Below, piece after piece: positions 32,328 to 44,274 of a stretch of 64,000 nucleotides of DNA. Source of the DNA: Spirochaetota bacterium (GTDB lineage Bacteria > Spirochaetota > UBA4802 > JAFGDQ01). Position numbers and translations under genes: made by a program. The stretch is from assembly GCA_043803405.1 (NCBI GenBank), contig JAZDKB010000006.1, forward strand, positions 32,001-96,000, read 5' to 3'. Below the pieces are notes generated by a model. It searched no databases. It was not told the DNA's origin and saw only the letters and a list, made by a program, of their open reading frames with translations. How positions within the stretch are numbered: position 1 is the stretch's first letter; every line of letters starts with the position of its first letter.

Positions 32328-32403
32328 CTGTGCATCCCAAAACCTATATATCGCTGTATTTTTTATCGAGACAATATCACAATAGGTTTTAGGACACACT
32401 CTA
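32324..32403. repeat. ~78-bp inverted-repeat element (MITE-like family, copy 2)
   Basis: gtgcatcccaaaaccta…taggttttaggacacac between convergent genes. The right half is nearly identical to 18721-18750. Confidence 0.7.
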
Positions 32404-32937
32404 ACTGTGCGTCATATAATACTTTAATATATTTATAATCGAGGGAAAACAAATAACTTCAAAATTAATATCTTTTGGATGGATCAGCAATGCTTCCGCA
32501 ACATCATCCGCCGGTTTAAGACCTGATAAATCATTCATGGGACAGACAAAGGCCATATCGCAGGTAAAATAACTGATCCCTTTAAATACATATTCATTTG
32601 GGAAGGAAGCTAAAAACTTCATACTGCCTACGGACACACCCAGTTCTTCAAAAATCTCACGCTTAGCAGCATCTTCAGCGCGCTCCATGCAGTCCACAAA
32701 TCCGCCGGGCAAATCAAAGAAACCGGACCTGGGTTCAAACTTACGTTTGGTTAGCACAATTTTGCCATCCATGGCTTTGAGAATTACTGCAACAGCAGTA
32801 GCTGTATTTATGTAGAAATCAAAATTACAAGACGGGCAGGTAAACTTTTTTTTATTGTCGAATTTAAAACCGTGCCGGCCGCAGCGGGGACAATAAGAAA
32901 AAACATTTAAAGGATGTGTTTTGGAAAATTTTTGCAT
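32401..32937 (-). CDS. NUDIX hydrolase with an N-terminal zinc ribbon
   Basis: CPRC…CPSC and the Nudix box PGGFVD..E.AEDAAKREIFEELG. Confidence 0.9.
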   Translation of the reverse strand: MQKFSKTHPLNVFSYCPRCGRHGFKFDNKKKFTCPSCNFDFYINTATAVAVILKAMDGKIVLTKRKFEPRSGFFDLPGGFVDCMERAEDAAKREIFEELGVSVGSMKFLASFPNEYVFKGISYFTCDMAFVCPMNDLSGLKPADDVAEALLIHPKDINFEVICFPSIINILKYYMTHS

Positions 32938-32984
32938 GTTTTAGACAGTTTTTCGGGCATGGATTATAAAATGTATTTCCGACG

Positions 32985-33374
32985 CTATTTCGATTCAATA
33001 ATCGCGTTCATTTCTTTTCTTATGAACGCCGCGATTTCGCTTAGCGACTGCTTGTAGGGCTTTCTGTTGTTCTTGATGTTTTCGAAAAGCAATGCGCCCC
33101 TCAGCAGATTATCCAGGTCTTTTTCAGATACGCCTTTTGAATGAAGCTCCGCATGTTCGGTCGTATCCAGCACCAGGTTAAATTTCCTGGCGATTTCCTC
33201 CAGCAGTATTATCTCAATTGATATGTCGAGCAGGTCGCCTATTGAGTTCCCGATCCTCATCGCATTATACGCAAAGTTATCCGTAAGGAAAGAGTTGACG
33301 TTTATCTTTTTTACGATCAGCGCCGGCACTTCATGCTTTTTTAAATAGCTGTCCAGTATTTCTTTTCTTATCAT
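32985..33374 (-). CDS. Hypothetical protein
   Basis: 129-aa ORF starting 2 bp after the TPR gene stop, with a GGAG RBS. Confidence 0.7.
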   Translation of the reverse strand: MIRKEILDSYLKKHEVPALIVKKINVNSFLTDNFAYNAMRIGNSIGDLLDISIEIILLEEIARKFNLVLDTTEHAELHSKGVSEKDLDNLLRGALLFENIKNNRKPYKQSLSEIAAFIRKEMNAIIESK

Positions 33375-33376
33375 AC

Positions 33377-34417
33377 CTATTCTCCTTTTAATGATTTTTG
33401 AATGTCGAGTTTAGCCTGCGCTCTCTGGCGGTATTCTTCGGCCATCGCGTGATCGGGATCTATTAATAGAACTTTATTGAATTCAGTTATAGCAGCCTTG
33501 TAATCGCCCTTGTCGTAAAGCGAGACACCTTTATTATAAATAGTACTTAATTGTTTACTGAGGATTACATTAATTTTTTCAAGATATTGTTCCGTTGCCC
33601 TGTACCCGGGTTCCATGTTATGAATGGACAAGAATGATGATCTTGCTTTGAAATAATCAGCATCGTTGAATTCCCCGACAGTAGTATTGTAAAAATTATC
33701 AAGATATATCCATCTTCTGGCATGGGTTAAAAGATCCCTGGACTCCCTGTCCCATGGGTTGTTATTAAGCGCAAGCTCGAACTGCTGCTGTGCATTGGCG
33801 TACTGTTTTTTAGCGTAATGTTCTTTTCCTTTCGCGCGGTATTTACGGCATTTCTCATCGAGCTTATCTTCAATTTTACTTTTTAACTGCGCGGCATCGG
33901 GACTTGACGGGTCAAAGAGAGCTGCTTTCAGATAAGCGTTATAAGCCTGAATATACTGCCTGCGGCCGTATAAACGCTCGCCCTGTTTAAGAGTTTCGTT
34001 CAGCCTGGGCACAAGCTTCTGCCTGCATTCCGTTATTTTTAAATCAACTGTCCCGTGATCCGGGTTGTCGGCCTTAACAAGCAGAAAATAGTTCAGGGCG
34101 TTTTCGTACTGACGCTGCTTCACGAACGCAAGGCCTTTGGCATAGTTGGCATTTGCTCTCTGGATCGCCTGCTTTTCCTTGCTCCTGATTATATTGTCCA
34201 GCATGGCCCAGTATTTTTTTGTGTCCCTGTAACCGGGCTCAATATCCATTACTGTTTTAAAACGGTCGCGGGCTCCCTCGTAATTTTTTTTATTGTAAAG
34301 CTCAATCCCTTCCTTATAGTTCTGGTTCCTCTTGTCTATTACGGATTTATAAAATGAAGAGCAACTCACAGAAAACAAAAACATAATTATAATAATTCCG
34401 TATTTACCTGTTCTCAT
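33377..34417 (-). CDS. TPR-repeat lipoprotein
   Basis: Signal peptide ending SVSC and repeated Y..G…Y..A…F…L..DP units. Confidence 0.85.
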   Translation of the reverse strand: MRTGKYGIIIIMFLFSVSCSSFYKSVIDKRNQNYKEGIELYNKKNYEGARDRFKTVMDIEPGYRDTKKYWAMLDNIIRSKEKQAIQRANANYAKGLAFVKQRQYENALNYFLLVKADNPDHGTVDLKITECRQKLVPRLNETLKQGERLYGRRQYIQAYNAYLKAALFDPSSPDAAQLKSKIEDKLDEKCRKYRAKGKEHYAKKQYANAQQQFELALNNNPWDRESRDLLTHARRWIYLDNFYNTTVGEFNDADYFKARSSFLSIHNMEPGYRATEQYLEKINVILSKQLSTIYNKGVSLYDKGDYKAAITEFNKVLLIDPDHAMAEEYRQRAQAKLDIQKSLKGE

Positions 34418-34611
34418 ATATCCTTTATATTTTTTAATGATTTTGATTTTAGAATAATATTTTTAATCTGAAAGGCCACATATCACATTATCATAAAGTC
34501 AAAACAAATTCAAAGAAAAAGTCATATAAAAAGCCGCATAAGGCCGGTAATGCGTCAATAACTTTTTTTGATAAATAATAAGGGGCAGCAGATTAAATAA
34601 TCTATTTTCTT

Positions 34612-34639
34612 GAGATTTATCCCTTCGGTCGAAATGACA
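34612..34639 (+). repeat. Short REP-like half element (copy 2)
   Basis: gagatttatcccttcggtcgaaatgaca, similar to 24251-24279. Confidence 0.55.
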
Positions 34640-34679
34640 TTATTTATTATTAATAAATTACTAGCCGCATATTATACAA

Positions 34680-34812
34680 ATCCTGATGCCGGCGCAACGG
34701 AGTGTGCATACGTTGCCGCAGAGCCGAGTATGATTCCCGCAGGTCGTGTATGGAGATATCGATACTGCGCCGCGGGGGCAGCACAAGAGAAGACGCGCTT
34801 CCGCAGCAGGAT
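34680..34812. other. GC-rich foldable non-coding element A
   Basis: Closed by atcctg/caggat, with an inner gcaacg/cgttgc hairpin and a cccgc/gcggg pair. Shares the words gaaga(c/t)gcgc, cgcagca and gcagcac with elements B and C. Confidence 0.5.
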
Positions 34813-34889
34813 GGAACAGATATTTTTTACTTGAAAGATAATGAATAACATTATTTTTGATAACCAAAAAGAAAGGTAATGGAAATAGT

Positions 34890-35276
34890 ATGGATACAGA
34901 AAATAAAAAGAAATACCCGGTATGGAACCGTATAATGGATATTGTTTTCCGGACAATTCATGTCGGAGTGATAAGCATTCTATTCGGAGGAATGGTATTC
35001 GGAGTGCCTCACCAACGATTAGTAATATGGGGATATCTTGTTATTATTACAGGATTCTTTCTTGTTGCTTCAGAAATATATCATCGGCTTCACTGGATAA
35101 ATCAAATTAGAGGAATTATGGTAATCTTACATGCCGGTCTTTTTGGGGTATTGCATTTTTATCCGGATTTGGCAATACCGTTTTTAACCGGGGCAATTAT
35201 TTTCGGTATGGCGGGCAGCCACATGCCTAAAAGATTTCGCTGTTATTCTCTTTTACATAAACGCATGTTAGATTAA
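34890..35276 (+). CDS. Small 4-TM hypothetical membrane protein
   Basis: Four hydrophobic helices with His residues (RTIH, ILH, GSHMPKRFR). The ATG at 34890 is preferred. Confidence 0.7.
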   Translation: MDTENKKKYPVWNRIMDIVFRTIHVGVISILFGGMVFGVPHQRLVIWGYLVIITGFFLVASEIYHRLHWINQIRGIMVILHAGLFGVLHFYPDLAIPFLTGAIIFGMAGSHMPKRFRCYSLLHKRMLD

Positions 35277-35336
35277 TATAAATGGAATTATGAAACCTGA
35301 ATATTTAAAATATTAAATTTATTGTAAACTGCTTAA

Positions 35337-36131
35337 ATGAATATAAATGAAAAAAATCCGGTTATAACGACCGGTGCCGGTGCATTAATCGGAACATTAG
35401 GAGGGCTTATTGGACTTGGCGGCGCCGAGTTTCGTTTGCCGCTTCTCATAGGCTTGTTTGGATACTCTGCTCTGCCGGCAGTCATATTAAATAAAGCGAT
35501 GAGCCTCGCAGTTGTAGCATCCGCTCTTCCGTTTCGGGCATCCGTTATTCCGTTTAGGGATATTGCTTCACATTGGAATATTATTGTTACGCTTTTAGCA
35601 GGAAGTCTTTTAGGAGCATGGTTTGGCGCGGATTTAGCTACTAAAATGAAGTCTCACACTCTTTACAGGGTTTTATCTATACTGCTGGTTGTGATAGCTG
35701 TGGTGCTTTTTTTCGGGCATAATCCTGCTGCTTCGTCTGACTATAGTCTTACCGGTTTATGGCGCATAGTTGCAGGAGTAATTGCCGGTTTTGGTATTGG
35801 AGTAGTCGCAGCGCTCATGGGAGTTGCAGGCGGCGAACTATTAATTCCAACTATAGTCCTTCTTTTTGGTGCCGATATAAAATTGGCCGGAAGTTTATCA
35901 CTTGCAGTGAGCCTTCCTACTATGATTGTGAGCTTTACCCGGTATAGCAGGGATCAGGCTTTTTCTGTTATTAAAAGCGAACGACGTTTTGTTGTTTTAA
36001 TGGTTATAGGCTCTCTTTGTGGATCTTTTATAGGAGGCTTATTGCTTAATATTATTCCAACAAGTATGTTGCTTCCTTTGCTTTCGGTGATCCTTCTTAT
36101 TTCTGCAGTAAAAATCTGGAACCATGCATAA
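35337..36131 (+). CDS. Sulfite exporter TauE/SafE (TSUP) family protein
   Basis: Duplicated Gly-rich motifs GGLIGLGGAEFRLP and ALMGVAGGELLIP, about 8 TM. Confidence 0.88.
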   Translation: MNINEKNPVITTGAGALIGTLGGLIGLGGAEFRLPLLIGLFGYSALPAVILNKAMSLAVVASALPFRASVIPFRDIASHWNIIVTLLAGSLLGAWFGADLATKMKSHTLYRVLSILLVVIAVVLFFGHNPAASSDYSLTGLWRIVAGVIAGFGIGVVAALMGVAGGELLIPTIVLLFGADIKLAGSLSLAVSLPTMIVSFTRYSRDQAFSVIKSERRFVVLMVIGSLCGSFIGGLLLNIIPTSMLLPLLSVILLISAVKIWNHA

Positions 36132-36204
36132 CTATCAAAAAATTTGATATCAGTTCAGGCAGGCTATTGCCCGTGTGTTTAATCAGAAGCAAGTAATCAA
36201 GCCT

Positions 36205-36371
36205 TCGATGCAGCAATTCAGCATTCGCTTTCCGGCTGTCGCAGCGCACAGGCTAACGCATGATCGAAACAGAGAATGATAAGTAAGTTTCGAAACGCGT
36301 TCGGGAAGATGCGCGCTTTGCGTAATCCGCGTTCGCAGCAAAGGGCGTGGGAGCAGCACGGGCGCGCGGGG
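36205..36371. repeat. Structured direct repeat, element B
   Basis: 36218-36371 matches 37309-37462 at 147/154 positions by manual alignment and contains multiple stems. Confidence 0.92.
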
Positions 36372-36473
36372 TATTTATTTAATATTTTTTCATTACCGTA
36401 TAAAAGAATTGCAATAATCCGGAATAAATATATATTACTGTAAAATATGTATTTGTAATCCGGAGTTAAGCAA

Positions 36474-36782
36474 ATGACGATTGAAAATGAAATCGGCCTG
36501 ATAATAAAGCAACTCAAAGAAAATGTCGAAAGAAAATATCACATTGTTGACATGAAATTATTCGGTTCATCTGCGCGGGGTGATTCTTCAAAATCTTCAG
36601 ATATCGACATTTTAATTAAACTACCAATTGTAAACCGCAGTATTGAAGAGGATATTTTTGATATAGCATACGAACTGGAATTGGAACATGATTGTATTAT
36701 TGATGTAATCGTAGTGCCGGAAACTGTTAATATTAATATTCCTTTATATCATAATGTTGAAAAAGAAGGAATCGCGATTTGA
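36474..36782 (+). CDS. Minimal nucleotidyltransferase (MNT antitoxin)
   Basis: LFGSSARGD…SDIDI and a third Asp in IDVIV. Confidence 0.9.
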   Translation: MTIENEIGLIIKQLKENVERKYHIVDMKLFGSSARGDSSKSSDIDILIKLPIVNRSIEEDIFDIAYELELEHDCIIDVIVVPETVNINIPLYHNVEKEGIAI

Positions 36783-37186
36783 CTAATGAAGAAAAAATCA
36801 TACTTATTAAGTATCGGTTGGAACGCGCGGATGAATCGCTAAAAGCTGCTTCTTTAATGTTTGAAAATAATTTGTATATCCCCGCAATTAACCGGATTTA
36901 TTATTCAATGTTTTATGCTATCCAGGCATTGCTTGTAATAAGTGAAAGTACTTTTACAAAACATGGCCAGGTCAAAGGTTACTTTAACCGTGCGTTTATA
37001 AAAACCGGAATTTTCCCGAAAGAATTCGGCAGGCTTTTCAATACCGTATTTGAATACCGGCAAAAATTTGACTATGTAGATTTGGTTTTACCAGGGAGAG
37101 AACTTGTATCAGATTATATAATCGAAGCAAAACGATTTAATGAAAGAATTTCACTATATTTGAACAACAAATTAACAAACCTTTAA
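36779..37186 (+). CDS. HEPN domain protein (partner of MNT)
   Basis: NRIYYSMFYA, KHGQV and FEYRQKFDY. Overlaps the MNT gene by 4 bp. Confidence 0.88.
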   Translation: MTNEEKIILIKYRLERADESLKAASLMFENNLYIPAINRIYYSMFYAIQALLVISESTFTKHGQVKGYFNRAFIKTGIFPKEFGRLFNTVFEYRQKFDYVDLVLPGRELVSDYIIEAKRFNERISLYLNNKLTNL

Positions 37187-37294
37187 GTGATTAAAATAAA
37201 TTTCCTGCCATTTTATAAATTCTAAAAATATTGAATAGCAACTGTTGCTTCTCCGGTTACCTGTTTTTTGCTTGTAATGCTCGCTGCCAGGTCA

Positions 37295-37462
37295 TCGATG
37301 CAACAGGATCAGCATTCGCTTTCCGGCTGTCGCAGCGCACAGGCTAACGCACGATCGAAACAGAGAATGATAAGTAAGTTTCGAAACGCGTTCGGGAAGA
37401 TGCGTTCTTTGCGTAATCCGCGTTCGCAGCAAAAGACTTGGAAGCAGCACGGGCGCGCGGGG
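37295..37462. repeat. Structured direct repeat, element C
   Basis: Second copy of 36205-36371. Confidence 0.92.
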
Positions 37463-37514
37463 AGTACAGGCTATCTTAACTGGTAAATATTTTTGTTTCA
37501 ACACATTAAACATA

Positions 37515-37576
37515 ATACCTTTGCTTTCGCGTCGGCCGACACCGCAGGTGGCGGCTGGTACGTCAGTACGGGGATT
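37515..37576. other. GC-rich hairpin element D
   Basis: tcggccgacacc-gca-ggtggcggctgg. Has a c-GCA-g loop and ends in cgggg, like elements B and C. Confidence 0.45.
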
Positions 37577-37827
37577 CTATTACACCTTCAATTATTTCAT
37601 TAAGTTTTTTTTACTTTAATGACCCCAGCTTTATAAAGAATTATTTTTAAATCAGCCGTAAAATTTTTTTATTAATTTCTTTGTTACGATCCCCATCCAT
37701 TTTACGCTTATATGCAAATTCTGAAAAACATTATTTGTGGTGATTTGTCCGGAATCAGAGCTCATTTCCAAAGATAATTCTATCAGAAAGAAATTATTAT
37801 CAATTTTAAATTATTTAGGAGGATAAT

Positions 37828-38598
37828 ATGAAAAACTGTGTCAAATTATTCGTCATATTGTTTTGTTTATCGTTTGCGATGATCGGATGCGGCGGCGGAG
37901 GCAGCGGCGGCGGTTCCGGTGGGTCTATTCTAACCCTGCCTGAGCTTGAAGATGTAGAGGGTAATAAATATGGTACATGCATGATAGGCAATCAATTATG
38001 GATGGCGGAAAATCTTCGCACTATATCCTTCCGCGACGGGTACTGGATGCTGACCGGACCTTTTGACAGTGTAGAATGGGCTAGCGCCGGAGCAGCCACT
38101 TGCGTATATCCGTACGATGCAATTGGTTTAGATTCAGCTGCAGCGGTAATTGAAGCCTATGGAAGGCTTTACAACTGGTATTCAGTGAATGACAGCAGAG
38201 GCCTTTGCCCTGAAGGGTGGCGCGTACCCACTGAAGAGGACTGGCTGGAACTTATCGACTACCTCGGAGGAGAGGAAGTTGCAGGAGGTAAACTGAAAAG
38301 TTACCGTACTGCTCCCATTTCCAATCATCCGCGCTGGGAAAGCCCCAATACCGGCGTTACCGGTGACTATCGTTTTAATGCACTTCCAGGAGGTTATCGC
38401 ACAGGGCTTACCGGTTTTTTTGATGAAGTTGGCTACTATGCATCATTCTGGAGCAGTACGGAATTTGAGACTACTTTTGCAGGTACAATGTCTCTTGACT
38501 ACAGTAGTACTTTTGCGGATTATGGTTATAGTCATAAAAGGGCTGGTTATTCGGTACGTTGTATATGCGGCGACGGAGGAGGAGTAGTCGCTCCGTAG
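37828..38598 (+). CDS. Lipoprotein with a Fibrobacter succinogenes major paralogous (FISUMP)-type domain
   Basis: Lipobox MIGC and a Gly linker, then IGNQLWMAENL, YGRLYNW, LCPEGWRVPT, FNALPGG and GYSVRC. AGGAGG RBS. Confidence 0.88.
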   Translation: MKNCVKLFVILFCLSFAMIGCGGGGSGGGSGGSILTLPELEDVEGNKYGTCMIGNQLWMAENLRTISFRDGYWMLTGPFDSVEWASAGAATCVYPYDAIGLDSAAAVIEAYGRLYNWYSVNDSRGLCPEGWRVPTEEDWLELIDYLGGEEVAGGKLKSYRTAPISNHPRWESPNTGVTGDYRFNALPGGYRTGLTGFFDEVGYYASFWSSTEFETTFAGTMSLDYSSTFADYGYSHKRAGYSVRCICGDGGGVVAP

Positions 38599-38627
38599 AC
38601 CTAAGCATTCAATTAAAAACATGGAAG

Positions 38628-38669
38628 ATCAGGGACCGCGATTGCTTTTTGTATTAACGGATCCCTGAT
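38628..38669 (+). terminator. Hairpin after the lipoprotein gene
   Basis: atcaggga-ccg…cgg-a-tccctgat followed by an AT-rich run. Confidence 0.5.
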
Positions 38670-38885
38670 TATTTAAAACTACAGGACAGGTAATCTATGT
38701 ACCTGAATGGTTTAAGGCAGCAGTAATATAAAATTATTATATTGCTTAAAGAAAATTATCAAACCTCCTTCTACCGTCACCTATGCTTCGTTGGATAGTT
38801 TTTCGCTGTGTTAGGGCAGGGCGATGGTTGAATTGCCTGGTAAAAAGAGATAGCAGATGTATAAAGCAGAAGGGAGATAAATATG

Positions 38886-38914
38886 TTGACAAATGAGTGA
38901 CACGAGAGTATCTT
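38886..38914 (+). promoter_or_regulatory. Sigma70-type promoter of the Phd-PIN operon
   Basis: TTGACA-17 bp-TATCTT, 30 bp upstream of the ATG at 38945. Confidence 0.65.
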
Positions 38915-38944
38915 TCTGTTATAAACGTATTATCGAGGCAACAA

Positions 38945-39226
38945 ATGAAATTTATTACAGTCAGAGATTTAAGAACCACTCCGGCAAAGATATGGAAAGA
39001 TTTGCCGGATGAACAGGAAATGGTAATAACCAATAACGGTAAACCAATTGCTCTTTTAACTCCTTTAACTGACTCTGATATGGAAGATACATTGTCAACA
39101 ATAAGAAAGGCGAGAGCGGGCAGCGCAATCAGTAAAATGCAATTTTCTGCAATTAAAAATAATCTGTCTGATATGACATCGGAAGAAATTGAAAAAGAAA
39201 TAAAAGCAGCCAGAAAAAATAAATGA
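38945..39226 (+). CDS. Phd/YefM-type antitoxin
   Basis: MKFITVRDLR…VITNNGKPIALL, with a GAGG RBS. Confidence 0.85.
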   Translation: MKFITVRDLRTTPAKIWKDLPDEQEMVITNNGKPIALLTPLTDSDMEDTLSTIRKARAGSAISKMQFSAIKNNLSDMTSEEIEKEIKAARKNK

Positions 39227-39633
39227 AAATTGTCTTAGACACTAATGTCTTAATTTCTGCTTTATTAAATCCTGAAGGAATCCCCGCGGTGTTGTTAAGT
39301 TTAATTGTTAACGGTAAGTTGAAATTACTCTATGACAATAGAATATTATCAGAATATTTTGAGGTTTTAAACCGCAAAAAGTTCAATTTCAAATCTGAAT
39401 GGATAGAGCCTCTGATCGATTTCATTAGAAATGAAGGTGAATTTATAATTGCTAATCCGGTTTTCAAATCATTTAAAGATAAAGATGATATAAAATTTTA
39501 TGAAGTAGCCAAATCCGGTAACGCAAAATATATAATTACCGGAAATATAAATCATTTCCCAAAAGAAGATTTAATTAAAACTCCTGCTGAGTTTTTAAAT
39601 ATTTACACAAGAATAAATAAACAAAATAATTAA
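39223..39633 (+). CDS. PIN-domain toxin
   Basis: IVLDTNVLISAL, EY.EVL, DKDD and ITGN..HF. ATGA overlap with the antitoxin. Confidence 0.9.
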   Translation: MKIVLDTNVLISALLNPEGIPAVLLSLIVNGKLKLLYDNRILSEYFEVLNRKKFNFKSEWIEPLIDFIRNEGEFIIANPVFKSFKDKDDIKFYEVAKSGNAKYIITGNINHFPKEDLIKTPAEFLNIYTRINKQNN

Positions 39634-39719
39634 AATTCCGGAATTAGCGCATATGGTTAAACAAAGTATTTTTTTACTGCCGGTTTTAGCGCCAGCCAAC
39701 TTTCTTAACTTTAAGTTTA

Positions 39720-41789
39720 TTATACTTTAAAGAAGTTAACCTTTGCTTTTAAGGCATCAGCCGAACCAGATATTTCTTCGGACATCCCTGCCATCTCCTC
39801 TGCACCTGCCGCTATTGACTGAGTCATTTCATTTATGTTCGCAGTTGCCCGCACAATTTCTTCTGTAGATTTAAGATGCTCGAAAGTTGCGTTCTTGATT
39901 GTGTCCGTTTTTTCTTTTACAACATCGGACAATGCATTCATTTTATCCTTGGCTTCAAGCTGGTTAATCATAAAACCTTTCATGGAATTCATCATGGAAG
40001 ATATTGATTCGACACTTTTTATTATGCCTCCGATTGTTCTGCTTGTTTCATCGGAAATCTCTATTCCCCTGACAATTTCCGAATTGTTTAATTTAATGAG
40101 CTGGTCAATCTCCTTAATGCTCCCTGCTGTTCCGTCGGCGAGTTTGGATATTTCCTGGGCAACAACTGCAAAGCCGCGTCCGGCCTCTCCTGCGCGGGCG
40201 GATTCAATAGCGGCGTTAAGAGAGAGAAGGTTGATTTTATCCGAAATATCCGTGATGATCTGAATGATGCTGCTCACCTTTGCCGAGCTATCATTAATTT
40301 TATTCATGCTTGCATTCATTGATAGAATTGATGCTTCACCAGTTTTTGCGCTTTGAGACATTGCGCTTGTGAGCTCATGGGATTTTCTTATATTTGCTTC
40401 CATAGTGTTAATTAAACCCGAAAGATCGGACATTTTTTCAACCATAGCTGAAAGGTTTTCATGCTGTGTTTGTGTTATTTCATTGATGAATTCCATTCCG
40501 GCGGAGAGCTCTTCCGTTGTGGCATTAACTTCTTCCACCGAAGCTGCCTGTGTCTGGGAACTTTCGGAAAACGACTTCGTGTTTGAATATAGCTGAGCGG
40601 ACATCCTGGTCATCTCCCCTGACACATTCATAATATCACTGATTACATCGCGTATTTTCTTAACGAATTTGTTGAAGTTCCCGGCAAGCGTGCCCAGTTC
40701 ATCATTTGACTCAATATCGATAGTAATTGTAAGGTCTCCTTCTCCTTCGGAGAGATCCTTTACAACATCGTTAAGCTTGTTGAAACGTACCATAATCAAT
40801 TTTTTTACAGCGAAATAAAGAACAATAAGTATTACAATACTGCAAAGAAAAAATCCTGCGAATAAATAGTTGCGCATTACCAGGCCATCGGAAATAAGTT
40901 CACGTTCCATAGCGCTTGATGCAATGATCCAGTTCCATTCATCATAGTAACTGAAGACCGCATATTTTATACCTGTTCCGCGTTCATCAGTCCAGTCGTA
41001 TTTTATCATTCCGTTCATTTCACGAAGCATGGTTTTAATAAATTCATTCCCGTCTTTATCTTTAAGATACGAAATGTCTTTATTTTCCAGCTTATCCGAT
41101 TTATGAACTACAGCTTTGCCCCTGTCTTCGCTTTTGTTGCCTTCGATAATGTAAACATAGCCGGTCTTTGCTACGGTTATGGACCGTATCTTGTTTTTTA
41201 AATTTTTTATTCCTTCGGTAAAATCGAGGCCGATAAAGTGAATGCCGGTTACCCTGTCGCCGTCCTTGACGGGCTCATAATGCGTCATGTAATTGCGGCC
41301 GAACAGTACAGCCGGTCCTGTATAGCTTTCCCCTGCCAGAACTTTTTTGTAGCCAGGATGATTCTTGTCAAGAAGAGTCCCCACAGCCCTAGTTCCGTCC
41401 TGCTTCCTTAGAGATGTGCTTGCGCGCCTGAAATCGTCACCTTCTCTGATAAAGAGTGTAGCCACAGCTCCGGTAATCCTGGTGAAACGGTCTATGTTGT
41501 CCTGCGAAATGTTCTGGTTCTTTCTTCCGTTATTACTGTAATTAATTAACACATTTGCAAGCGAAACAGCATGTTCTTTAAGTTTAAGATTGTAAACATC
41601 GATCATTTCAATGATGCGTTTATTCAGATCGGTCATTTCATTAGTGCTTTGTTCCGTAAACCTGCTTTTAATCAGCTGACCGGCGATCAAAGCCAGTACT
41701 AATAGAACAATAATAATTACAACGGCCTGAAAAATTATAAGTTTGCTTCCAAGCTTTAATGTGCTGTTATGAAAAAAATTTTTCATGAT
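39720..41789 (-). CDS. Methyl-accepting chemotaxis protein with Cache sensor domains
   Basis: Cache3/Cache2-like ATLF…RASTSL…RAVGTLL, a HAMP domain and the canonical tip [24 protein letters not shown]. Confidence 0.92.
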
Positions 41790-42168
41790 GGTACTTTCCA
41801 TAGGTAACAAAAAGTTTTAACGGATATCGAAAATAGTATTTGTTTGCTACAGTAATTTTTGCTAAATAACGGGCTGCAGATCACGATTCGATTATTTGAT
41901 TTATAATTCTAGTATATTCTTCACGGCAGGTCAATATACATTTTTTATTTTAAAAATAAAAAGTTATCTTGTTCTGTTTTCCATTTCAACGTAATATAAT
42001 AATTTTAAAACTATTATGTTTGATAATTATCGATAGTACATCAAAAAAATTTAACAATTTCTGTTTGCAAATTATGATCTTCAATGTAAAAATATAGGAA
42101 ACAATATAGTTCTGTCATCGGGAAACGAAACGGAATTATATTGGAAAAATAAGTAAAAGGAGATCATT

Positions 42169-42720
42169 ATGAGCAAATACGAAATCGCTGTTATTGTTGG
42201 GAGCCTTCGTAAGGATTCATTTAACCGTAAACTGGCAAATGCTATTGTAAAGCTTGCGCCGTCCGACTTCTCTTTTAACCAGGTAAAAATCAGTGATTTA
42301 CCGCTTTACAATCAGGATGATGATGCTAATCAGGCCGAGGTTGTCAAACGATTAAAGGACGAGATTAAAAGATCAAATGGCCTTTTGTTTCTTACTCCGG
42401 AATATAACCGTTCGATTCCGGGAGTACTTAAGAATGCAATCGACCATGCTTCGCGACCTTACGGCCAAAGCGCCTGGGCCGGAAAACCGGCCGGTATCAT
42501 AGGCGTTTCAATCGGTGCCATTGGTACAGCGGTTGCGCAACAGCATTTGCGCGGTATTCTTGCGTACCTGGACATTCCAACCCTTGGACAACCGGAAGCA
42601 TTCATCCAGGCGAAAGACGGACTCTTTGACGATGCAGGCAATATCGGGCTGGACAGTAAACAATTTTTTCAAAACTGGATGAGTAAATATATAGCGTGGA
42701 TAAAAAAGCACGCTGCATAA
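42169..42720 (+). CDS. NAD(P)H-dependent FMN reductase (chromate reductase-like)
   Basis: GSLRKDSFN, LPLYNQD and TPEYNRSIPGVLKNAID. Confidence 0.92.
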   Translation: MSKYEIAVIVGSLRKDSFNRKLANAIVKLAPSDFSFNQVKISDLPLYNQDDDANQAEVVKRLKDEIKRSNGLLFLTPEYNRSIPGVLKNAIDHASRPYGQSAWAGKPAGIIGVSIGAIGTAVAQQHLRGILAYLDIPTLGQPEAFIQAKDGLFDDAGNIGLDSKQFFQNWMSKYIAWIKKHAA

Positions 42721-42910
42721 TCAGAGTGAAAAACTGCACCCCGTCAGTCAGCGGTAAATTTTATCAGGACACAACCTTATCTTCCTTATGCATTGAAACT
42801 TAAAATACTTTTACCGGAAGTAATTCACTTGAAACTTAATCCTGCGTTTACTTAAGTACGTTATTAATATTACAGAAAAATTCAGCCGATATAAGAAAGG
42901 ATATTATTAC

Positions 42911-43663
42911 ATGAGTAAATCAATACAGCAAAAGATAATCGATTTTTTAAAGCCTTCTGCCGAAGGGCTTGCAGTAACAGATGTGCGCGTTGGCCTTGGG
43001 TACACAAGCGTGCGTTTAGATAACGGCAGCATAGGGATTGCGTGGACGGCGGACAGCCAGTCAGGGAGCTGCACGCACGAAGCCAGGGCAGGGACGCTCG
43101 CAGGCAGGCCTGCACCAGAACTCCTTGAAATGCTGGGAGGCCTCCGCAGCCCTCTTTCAAGGAGTATCGGCCTTGCAACTGCCAATGCCCTCGCAGCAGG
43201 CCTTCCGCGTCCGGAGACGACTTCGGTCGATGTCCTGGAACTTGTTAATATACAGGCTGCCGACCATGTAGTAATGGTGGGCTTTTTTGGGCCGCTTATA
43301 CCGAAGATTCGCGCGACTGACTGCCGCCTGGACATTCTGGAGCTGAAAAGCGGCAAACCGGGCACCATAACTCCGGAGGAGGGACGCACGTCGCTTGCAG
43401 TTTGCAGTGTCGCAATAATAACGGCAACCAGCATTGTAACCGGCACTATGGACGAGCTTTTAGCCGGTCTGGGCAAACCGCGCGCTGTAGTTTTACTGGG
43501 GCCGTCAACTTTCATACGGCCGGAGGTTTTTGCAGGAACACTGGTTACACATATAGCAGGAGCAAGGATACGCAATGCTGAAGCTGTAGTGAAGATTGTC
43601 TCCGAAGGCGGCGGCACAATGATACTTCGGCAGTATATGGACTTTGAAACAGTATGTCTTTGA
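42911..43663 (+). CDS. DUF364/DUF4213-type Rossmann-like protein
   Basis: VGLGYT, IGLATANA, VVMVGFFGP, IITATSIV and LLGPST. GAAAGG RBS. Confidence 0.75.
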   Translation: MSKSIQQKIIDFLKPSAEGLAVTDVRVGLGYTSVRLDNGSIGIAWTADSQSGSCTHEARAGTLAGRPAPELLEMLGGLRSPLSRSIGLATANALAAGLPRPETTSVDVLELVNIQAADHVVMVGFFGPLIPKIRATDCRLDILELKSGKPGTITPEEGRTSLAVCSVAIITATSIVTGTMDELLAGLGKPRAVVLLGPSTFIRPEVFAGTLVTHIAGARIRNAEAVVKIVSEGGGTMILRQYMDFETVCL

Positions 43664-43709
43664 TGATAAGACAAGAAATGGCAGGAATAGCCTGGAATGG
43701 GGTTGTTTT

Positions 43710-43756
43710 AAAATATGCCACAGAGATACACACTTTGTGCCTCTGTGGCATATTTT
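43710..43756. terminator. Perfect 16-bp inverted repeat, likely bidirectional terminator or REP-like element
   Basis: aaaatatgccacagag / ctctgtggcatatttt between convergent genes. Confidence 0.7.
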
Positions 43757-43800
43757 TCATTACAAGACGGTCCCTGGACGCGCTTTATAAAAAATTTTTT

Positions 43801-44274
43801 TTAAATAATTGAGAAGTCGACCCTTCTGTTTTTATTTCTTCCGTCCGGGGTTTTATTGTCCGCAATCGGTAATGTGTCGCCGAAACCTTTGGCAGTCAGC
43901 CTGGCAGCGGGCAGTTTACCTTCCGTTACGAGCCACTTAACGACAGCTTCCGCTCTTTTCTGAGACAGGTTAAGATTTGCTTTTGCATTGCCTACATTAT
44001 CAGTATGGCCTTCGACCTGTACTTTAAAATTACCCGGATAATTATTTACAATGTTTACAATTGCATCAAGTGTCTTCCTGCATTTTTCAACATCTATAAC
44101 TGCGCTTCCTGTCTTAAATATAATCGGGCCCTTTTCGTTCTGGACATTTTTCAGCTTTGCCGTAAGCTGTTTTTTTGACTCATCCTTTGCGCCCGATTTG
44201 ACGGACTTTAAATCGAGAGCATAAAGCCCTGAGCCGGCAAAAAGGATAATCAATACTGTTAACAATTTTTTCAT
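43801..44274 (-). CDS. OmpA-family peptidoglycan-binding protein
   Basis: Signal peptide, EGHTDNVG, NLNLSQKRA and NRRVDF. Confidence 0.92.
   Translation of the reverse strand: MKKLLTVLIILFAGSGLYALDLKSVKSGAKDESKKQLTAKLKNVQNEKGPIIFKTGSAVIDVEKCRKTLDAIVNIVNNYPGNFKVQVEGHTDNVGNAKANLNLSQKRAEAVVKWLVTEGKLPAARLTAKGFGDTLPIADNKTPDGRNKNRRVDFSII

Follow-up and report, generated by a model that had tools for sequence, protein, structure and literature searches.

Genes and spacers of the island

We analyzed a small accessory island in a 64,000-nt stretch of a Spirochaetota genome (contig C6, positions 32001 to 96000, of the genome here called G000). This stretch is referred to as the window, and its numbering is used for the island. 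The island holds seven genes and several spacers, two of which, B and C, form a direct repeat around a toxin-antitoxin (TA) pair. The G000 assembly comprises 3.98 Mb in 54 contigs and is 94% complete; G001 and G002 are genomes of the same genus. The island genes are as follows.

34890..35276, + strand: four-transmembrane (4-TM) membrane protein of an unnamed family, without Pfam or NCBIfam match
35337..36131, + strand: TauE/SafE (TSUP) exporter (PF01925, 2e-27)
36474..37186, + strand: MNT (36474-36782) and HEPN (36779-37186) TA pair (PF01909/PF18765; PF05168)
37828..38598, + strand: FISUMP-domain lipoprotein (PF09603, 2e-38; TIGR02145)
38945..39633, + strand: Phd (38945-39226) and PIN (39223-39633) TA pair (Phd, PF02604; PIN_3, PF13470/TIGR00305)

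A preliminary description of the island had reported seven small co-oriented genes between minus-strand neighbors, and the seven open reading frames (ORFs) were confirmed, all on the + strand and flanked by a minus-strand TPR gene (33377-34417) and a minus-strand Cache methyl-accepting chemotaxis protein (MCP) gene (39720-41810). The family names it had proposed hold for six of the seven (TauE, MNT, HEPN, FISUMP, Phd, and PIN), the assignment of Phd to PF02604 lying, at 25.3 bits, below the cut-off of 29.8. The 4-TM family is real though unnamed, with at least 237 clusters at E<=1e-3 in several phyla and an Atlas feature score of 0.95. Co-orientation alone is not unusual, since same-strand runs of at least seven genes are common in this genome (114 of 1017 runs, 1232 of 3322 genes), as counted with a crude ORF caller that split the island itself at a shadow ORF. 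Six genomes of the family yielded no close orthologue of TauE or HEPN (HEPN cut-off, E<=1e-25). HEPN homologues occur in 7 of 121 genomes of the order, at 39 to 46% identity, and close TauE homologues at 80 metagenome loci (64 with at least 600 nt upstream) were accompanied by no other island gene and no spacer.

The GC-rich patches A to E lie where the preliminary description had placed them; R0 was absent from it.

34600..34655, no strand assigned: R0, dispersed short repeat resembling repetitive extragenic palindromic (REP) elements; 21 hidden Markov model matches on 10 contigs, in all four flank orientations
34680..34812, + strand: spacer A, GC-rich and present once in the genome; its 10-bp ends are imperfectly complementary
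36205..36371, + strand: spacer B, first copy of a local direct repeat, 157/168 identical to C; tail at ~36337-36365
37295..37462, + strand: spacer C, second copy of this repeat; tail at ~37428-37456
37490..37575, no strand assigned: D, dispersed repeat resembling REP elements or miniature inverted-repeat transposable elements (MITEs), unrelated to B/C; 33 copies on 20 contigs
38754..38840, - strand: E, single-copy weak hairpin with an attC-like outline at chance level

B (167 nt) and C (168 nt) share perfect runs of 52, 43, and 27 nt. They bracket the MNT-HEPN module as direct repeats, and the unit measures 1091 bp from repeat to repeat. Among 42 pairwise comparisons (seven spacer pieces, both orientations), B and C alone were clearly above shuffles (p=0.003, the floor; next p=0.02). 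The full-length element has two copies in the genome, not the many dispersed palindromic copies of a REP element or MITE. B was absent from 40 relatives and gave no match by plasmid blastn; in 400 genomes of the phylum it had three short matches, all within coding sequence. An 18-mer of B gave 100 matches against GTDB, none longer than the seed and all attributable to chance, and two pattern scans of viral sequences gave none. No tandem period was detected in B/C, and an ORF overlapping C had no usable Atlas feature match. None of the inverted pairs listed, the 25 longest out of 453, linked the two ends of B or of C, and visual inspection revealed no flank duplication. An attC-shaped minus-strand hairpin within B/C was considered and rejected by eye (four of seven R-box pairs, no extrahelical base).

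D and R0 have the many intergenic copies in random orientation that characterize REP elements and MITEs; the flank orientations of D are 9/8/7/7, plus two copies at contig ends, and D is also abundant in G002. A search of 121 further genomes of the order for spacer A gave no real match (three of 22 to 24 nt at E~0.007). The DNA fold z-scores against shuffles (+/- strand) were -1.17/-1.06 for A, -0.14/-1.31 for B, +0.22/-0.71 for C, -2.07/-0.69 for D, and -0.50/+0.56 for E. D alone thus folds somewhat better than shuffles, and no stable single-strand hairpin was detected in A, B, C, or E (z between -1.3 and +0.6); the RNA fold z-scores were -0.84 for B and -1.16 for A. Rfam gave no match at E<=1 in 34400-39750. 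The preliminary description had envisaged a foldable, GC-rich spacer before every module and a single structural site family. The 4-TM and TauE genes, however, are separated by 60 nt with 17% GC. Because A to E share no sequence except between B and C, do not fold significantly, and are accompanied or represented by genome-wide dispersed repeats (R0 and D), this specific model fails the test proposed with it, namely, a structural consensus among the spacers.

The absence of canonical attC sites and of an integrase, as first reported, holds at the locus; for the genome, the second statement does not, as contig C9 encodes the integron integrase IntI (269625-270626; TIGR02249, 453 bits), with its own array and on another contig than the island. 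This is a complete chromosomal integron (C9:269625-282264, L246, continuing on C10:1-2600, L248), with IntI on the same strand as the cassettes, attC sites of ~130 nt, and a group II intron reverse transcriptase gene within the array. Further attC clusters are present at C9:148-151 kb and on C45, C2, C1, C21, and C39, some of them holding TA-like cassettes. A host attC model trained on 10 sites had 14 genome matches at E<0.01 (10 of them the training sequences), scoring 29 to 133 bits and none of them on C6; with filters off, it reached at most 9.1 bits at the island edge (39703-39741) and 7.2 bits or less inside. A generic attC scan, based on features from PMC4889954 plus the general attC consensus, gave no island match at or above 11.5, its sensitivity being 8 of 15 known sites. 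The minus strand of E scored 10.9 (threshold, 11.5; background, 0.8 matches at or above 11.5 per 5.3 kb). Integrons and clusters of attC sites lacking an integron integrase (CALINs) have one site per cassette; here, no site lies in the 4-TM/TauE gap or after PIN, and the spacers are unrelated. The island is somewhat like a cassette array in its working, yet it is neither an integron nor a CALIN.

A family of tailed spacers in the genus

B and C end in a purine-rich tail, ...AGCAGCA[G/C]GGGC, of a kind that recurs at other loci of G000. The spacers of this family are noncoding, GC-rich, and purine skewed. Their bodies, 100 to 330 nt long, are locus specific, and their common 3' tail has the consensus CAGAAAGGCGnTGGGAGCAGCAGGGGCG. 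Judged by their sequence, B and C probably represent a locally duplicated copy of this genus-wide class. A position weight matrix (PWM) of the tail, trained on 16 sites at other loci (C6 excluded) that were chosen with a core word matched by B and C within one mismatch, scored B at 33.8 bits and C at 27.5 bits, the best coding match in the genome reaching 27.1. Restricted to its 16 upstream columns, the matrix gave 14.4 for B and 8.1 for C; the highest value at the 82 places where the core occurs in coding sequence was 8.3. The tail of B is therefore clear, and C qualifies through its identity with B.

A tetranucleotide model ranked both B and C in the 99th percentile when compared with 228 GC-rich patches as background. 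At z>=2.5, B resembled 10 of the 18 family spacers in same-strand comparisons and none of them in opposite-strand comparisons. Spacer A lay at the 72nd percentile of the background (its 3' half at the 94th), with a tail score of 6.8 bits; D and E scored below 5 bits. A, D, and E resembled none of the 18 family spacers on the same strand and, respectively, one, two, and one on the opposite strand above shuffles. Membership of spacer A in the tailed-spacer family is not established, and the Phd-PIN pair has a family spacer on neither side.

In G000, we found 29 noncoding tail matches of at least 20 bits at eight loci, compared to one match in the reversed genome; two family matches inside long frames were removed before counting. 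At all six loci with at least two matches, the tails lie on a single strand. The spacers are found mostly between TA modules, and the upstream gene is co-oriented with the spacer in 16 of 21 cases, the tail mostly following just after its stop codon. A tail is present within 1 kb of 7 of the 36 PIN, ParE, or MNT genes, versus 38 of all 3202 genes and 21 of 681 small genes. The exact tail 12-mer occurs 20 times in the three genus genomes, versus once in the control; 15 of these occurrences are noncoding and lie in accessory patches, and 5 are coding. The strand of the tail agrees with GC skew at six of the eight loci, the skew being flat at one and opposite at one. A self-BLAST of the genome yielded 40 local direct-repeat pairs, many of which are private noncoding repeats around TA genes. 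A 5' block is common to the C15, C19, and C21 spacers only, other bodies being unrelated, and REP-like pieces are nested within some family spacers.

The clearest arrays, which are a better test case than the island itself, lie at C15:228000-234000 (L259) and C19:70800-72500; they comprise a SEC-C gene along with four TA-type modules, all preceded by a type I restriction gene. The two arrays share a 612-nt antitoxin/RelE module, including its spacer flanks, at 91.5% identity. Part of a second module is shared at 88.5% and in the same order, and the genes between the two modules are missing at C19, the pattern expected from deletion between repeats. A third array (C21:12100-24100, L257) contains an attC remnant, two TA pairs, and six copies of a private spacer of 210 to 330 nt, ~89 to 93% identical to one copy, whose similarity stops near the tail. 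A 45-codon fragment beside one of these copies resembles an IS91-type transposase. At each locus, spacers separate the small accessory modules in a single orientation, and one module, spacer flanks included, is found in two arrays.

Two other accounts of the spacers were rejected. An origin as decayed coding sequence (an integrase tail) finds neither codon-position bias (variable columns, 16/16/13) nor protein homology, the sole BLAST match of 12 six-frame-translated spacers being a REP insert inside a helicase gene. Anchoring of the arrays to tRNA genes fails because at all eight loci the tRNA is at least 10 kb away or there is none on the contig.

Similar patches are present in the other genomes of the genus. 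At G001:C31, one RelBE-type pair has a spacer on each side (both spacers later entered model R2), and the syntenic site G000:C44 carries a degraded orthologue of this pair (77.8% nucleotide identity), further TA pairs, insertion sequence genes, and more spacers. The number of modules thus differs between relatives at one orthologous site. An independent tail match lies beside a MazEF-type pair at G001:C69 and another at the end of contig G001:C86; at G002:C40, outside the training set, four same-strand tails lie among small accessory genes, with no TA pair recognized. Beyond the genus, the tail model gave six single matches (E 0.01 to 0.05) in 119 genomes, four of them within ORFs of at least 100 amino acids, which is the level of chance. 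The weaker family-level tail matches and that at G001:C92 were coding, and the C21 spacer was not found in 121 genomes of the order. Tailed spacers are apparently an undescribed family that separates swappable gene modules in this genus, where the tail may serve as a sequence tag marking such patches; no matching description of spacer-punctuated TA arrays was found in the incomplete body of literature searched.

Other repeat-rich loci were seen in passing. At C23:60600-65500 (L261), four copies of an AT-rich private direct repeat of 280 to 420 nt, without the purine-rich tail, separate two PIN modules and regulator/methyltransferase genes. RHS loci at G002:C13:58000-66000 (L311) and G000:C10:138000-144685 (L262) have TA pairs, DUF559 genes, and private repeats of 200 to 300 nt. 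A helicase gene at G000:C15:215746-219915 has an in-frame insertion of about three REP-like units, and a RAYT/Y1-type transposase gene at G000:C7:56247-57000 has short repeats at its flanks and is followed by a 21-nt minisatellite.

Origin of the island and of the arrays

The island lies at a synteny break in both relatives. A leuC-like gene comes after the TPR gene in G002. The MCP orthologue of G001 and G002 adjoins an RND efflux operon, its orientation reversed with respect to the GGDEF block. Breaks in both genomes indicate that the island is lineage specific and located at a rearrangement break. The variable zone is wider than the island (window positions 32401-33374 and 42169-44274), NUDIX and 129-amino-acid genes being absent at the G002 locus; the FMN-reductase and DUF364 genes are on other contigs in G002.

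We favor, with a probability of about 0.55, the view that the island represents a patch of accessory genes specific to this lineage, which sits at a rearrangement breakpoint and gathers several unrelated repeats, and that arrays of this kind grow and shrink by homologous recombination between repeats while addictive modules persist. Modules would enter and leave through RecA-type recombination between direct spacer copies, and a single crossover or unequal exchange would leave a duplicated spacer. TA modules would be over-represented because deletion between repeats would kill or stall the cell, and no dedicated recombinase would be required. Perfect runs of 52 and 43 nt, such as those between B and C, suffice for homologous recombination. 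These long runs, the tail-less junctions, the duplicated gene ends around TA genes, and the absence of a recombinase at the arrays all favor recombination between repeats. Duplicated flanks are not peculiar to tailed spacers: PIN-type TA modules are also bracketed by the duplicated 3' end of the preceding gene, 88 to 89% identical, at G001:C62 (L304:945-2097; an adenylate-kinase-like 3' end) and at G000:C18:97978-99397 (another gene). We infer that modules move by RecA-type recombination and that TA modules are kept by addiction, this retention step being borrowed by analogy from integrons. Repeat-flanked units with suggested excision by homologous recombination have a precedent (PMC3184786), and TA-mediated retention of repeat-bounded cassettes has been shown for integrons (PMC13108822).

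Several observations weigh against this reading. Most PIN, ParE, or MNT genes (29 of 36) have no tail within 1 kb, and the enrichment of tails near such genes is partly circular, since the training loci were found through TA-flanking repeats. Neither an empty site nor a circular form of B-MNT-HEPN-C was seen; the short contigs of one sequencing run of trace depth (0.07 share) show no joint, which speaks neither for nor against the reading, and G001 and G002, as described above, break synteny at the island. Because the family accounts for only two of the five island spacers, the model has little bearing on the remaining five genes. Finally, pure homologous recombination does not explain a short conserved tail joined to unrelated bodies across loci and species, and this tail, together with its polarity, keeps a site-specific system in play.

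A much less probable explanation is coincidental accretion, in which a dispensable region would have gathered TA genes and repeats independently, B/C would be a one-off duplication, and the tail would reflect low-complexity word usage. The genome is indeed rich in repeats (of 1611 intergenic regions of at least 100 nt, 505 have a repeat in common with at least one other), and four unrelated repeat types occur together in 5 kb. The tail PWM also scores glycine/alanine codon runs, at up to 27 bits, and most TA genes are without a spacer. On the other hand, this explanation is opposed by the strict one-strand polarity at each locus, the independent arrays of G001 and G002, and the module common to C15 and C19, and three-quarters of the exact 12-mers (15 of 20) are noncoding in a genome that is ~83% coding.

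Somewhat more doubtful still is a dedicated, genus-restricted cassette system of non-integron type operating beside the integron, in which AGCAGCAGGGGC-tailed spacers would be polarized, non-palindromic sites served in trans by a recombinase or HUH transposase, and B-MNT-HEPN-C would be one cassette. The combination of a short conserved motif with a variable body, the polarity, and the co-oriented upstream gene parallel attC arrays. The C21 similarity ends near the tail, the fragment resembling an IS91-type transposase lies beside one C21 copy, and the genome encodes five tyrosine recombinases. However, a recombinase was found at none of the array loci inspected, and the five enzymes are, by our reading beyond IntI itself, IntI, two Xer-like, and two island-type recombinases; no resolvase and no Y2 transposase were found in this 94% complete metagenome-assembled genome. 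Furthermore, three of the four junctions picked in the C15/C19 arrays lack a tail, the six C21 copies show no compensatory pairs (0 of 50, a test of limited power given how alike the copies are), no tRNA anchor is present, the two modules shared by C15 and C19 keep their order, and the tail is at chance level outside the genus. The preliminary description had likewise suggested a capture platform of non-attC type with its recombinase encoded elsewhere. Of this proposal, punctuation by repeats stands, at the island for B and C only, and the dedicated recombinase was not found. Such punctuation is better supported at other loci because of the shared tail, the single strand per locus, the variable module number, and the module found in two arrays.

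It is unlikely that the tail is a transcriptional signal, either a protein-binding word or a one-strand termination or insulation element beside foreign genes, with no role in movement. Its polarity, its usual position just past a co-oriented stop codon, and the conservation of the motif but not of the body would fit such a signal. Nevertheless, tails are likewise found ahead of genes in divergent or convergent orientation, B and C gave no terminator-like site, and a promoter/terminator scan was at chance (21 vs 17.8; 4 vs 4.2); the local duplication of bodies of 100 to 300 nt would also be unexplained. A decayed CALIN of the host integron, with E on the minus strand as the last attC remnant beside an inverted Phd-PIN cassette, is highly improbable: the host has IntI and distant attC clusters with TA-like cassettes, and E has an RYYYAAC...GTT outline, but neither the host attC model nor the generic scan, which recovers 8 of 15 known sites, recognized a site in the island.

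Overall, the island as it was first framed is mostly ordinary. If recombination between repeats is indeed at work, it would provide a clean natural example of TA clusters building up without an integrase, in which repeats give the homology and addiction fixes the product. If instead a cassette system were involved, it would be a second capture system beside a canonical integron, with non-hairpin sites, and would widen the known chemistry of gene capture.

Comparison with known systems

According to Cury et al. (2016, PMC4889954), integron arrays and CALINs resemble the tailed-spacer arrays in that small accessory genes and TA pairs lie between co-oriented noncoding sites, in that sites are more alike within than between arrays, and in that the integrase may be encoded elsewhere. 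Unlike in those systems, we found here no R and L boxes, extrahelical bases, significant hairpin, or host attC match, and some modules have no site. Similar to B/C in layout are the MITE- or repeat-flanked units IMU, NFM2-MITE, and Bacillus bcr5, which carry cargo between two direct noncoding repeats of a few hundred bases (PMC3184786); for NFM2-MITE, excision by homologous recombination was suggested there. In contrast to these units, no terminal inverted repeats or target duplication were seen at B and C, the copies are 93% identical rather than identical, and the bodies of such spacers are private to each locus. The selective reason why TA modules would be retained between recombining repeats is supplied by "cassette loss killing" in chromosomal integrons, as set out by Richard et al. 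(2024, PMC13108822), where loss is due to IntI acting at attC, whereas the tailed-spacer arrays are without an identified site-specific enzyme.

REP elements, bacterial interspersed mosaic elements, and MITEs are matched by D and R0, which have many copies in all orientations, while spacers of the B/C type are polarized, clustered, and non-palindromic. Additive flexible genomic islands occupy a fixed chromosomal site at which the module content varies between relatives. The tailed-spacer arrays differ from them in having no tRNA within 10 kb of the eight loci on their contigs and resemble them in the varying content of the C44 and G001:C31 sites.

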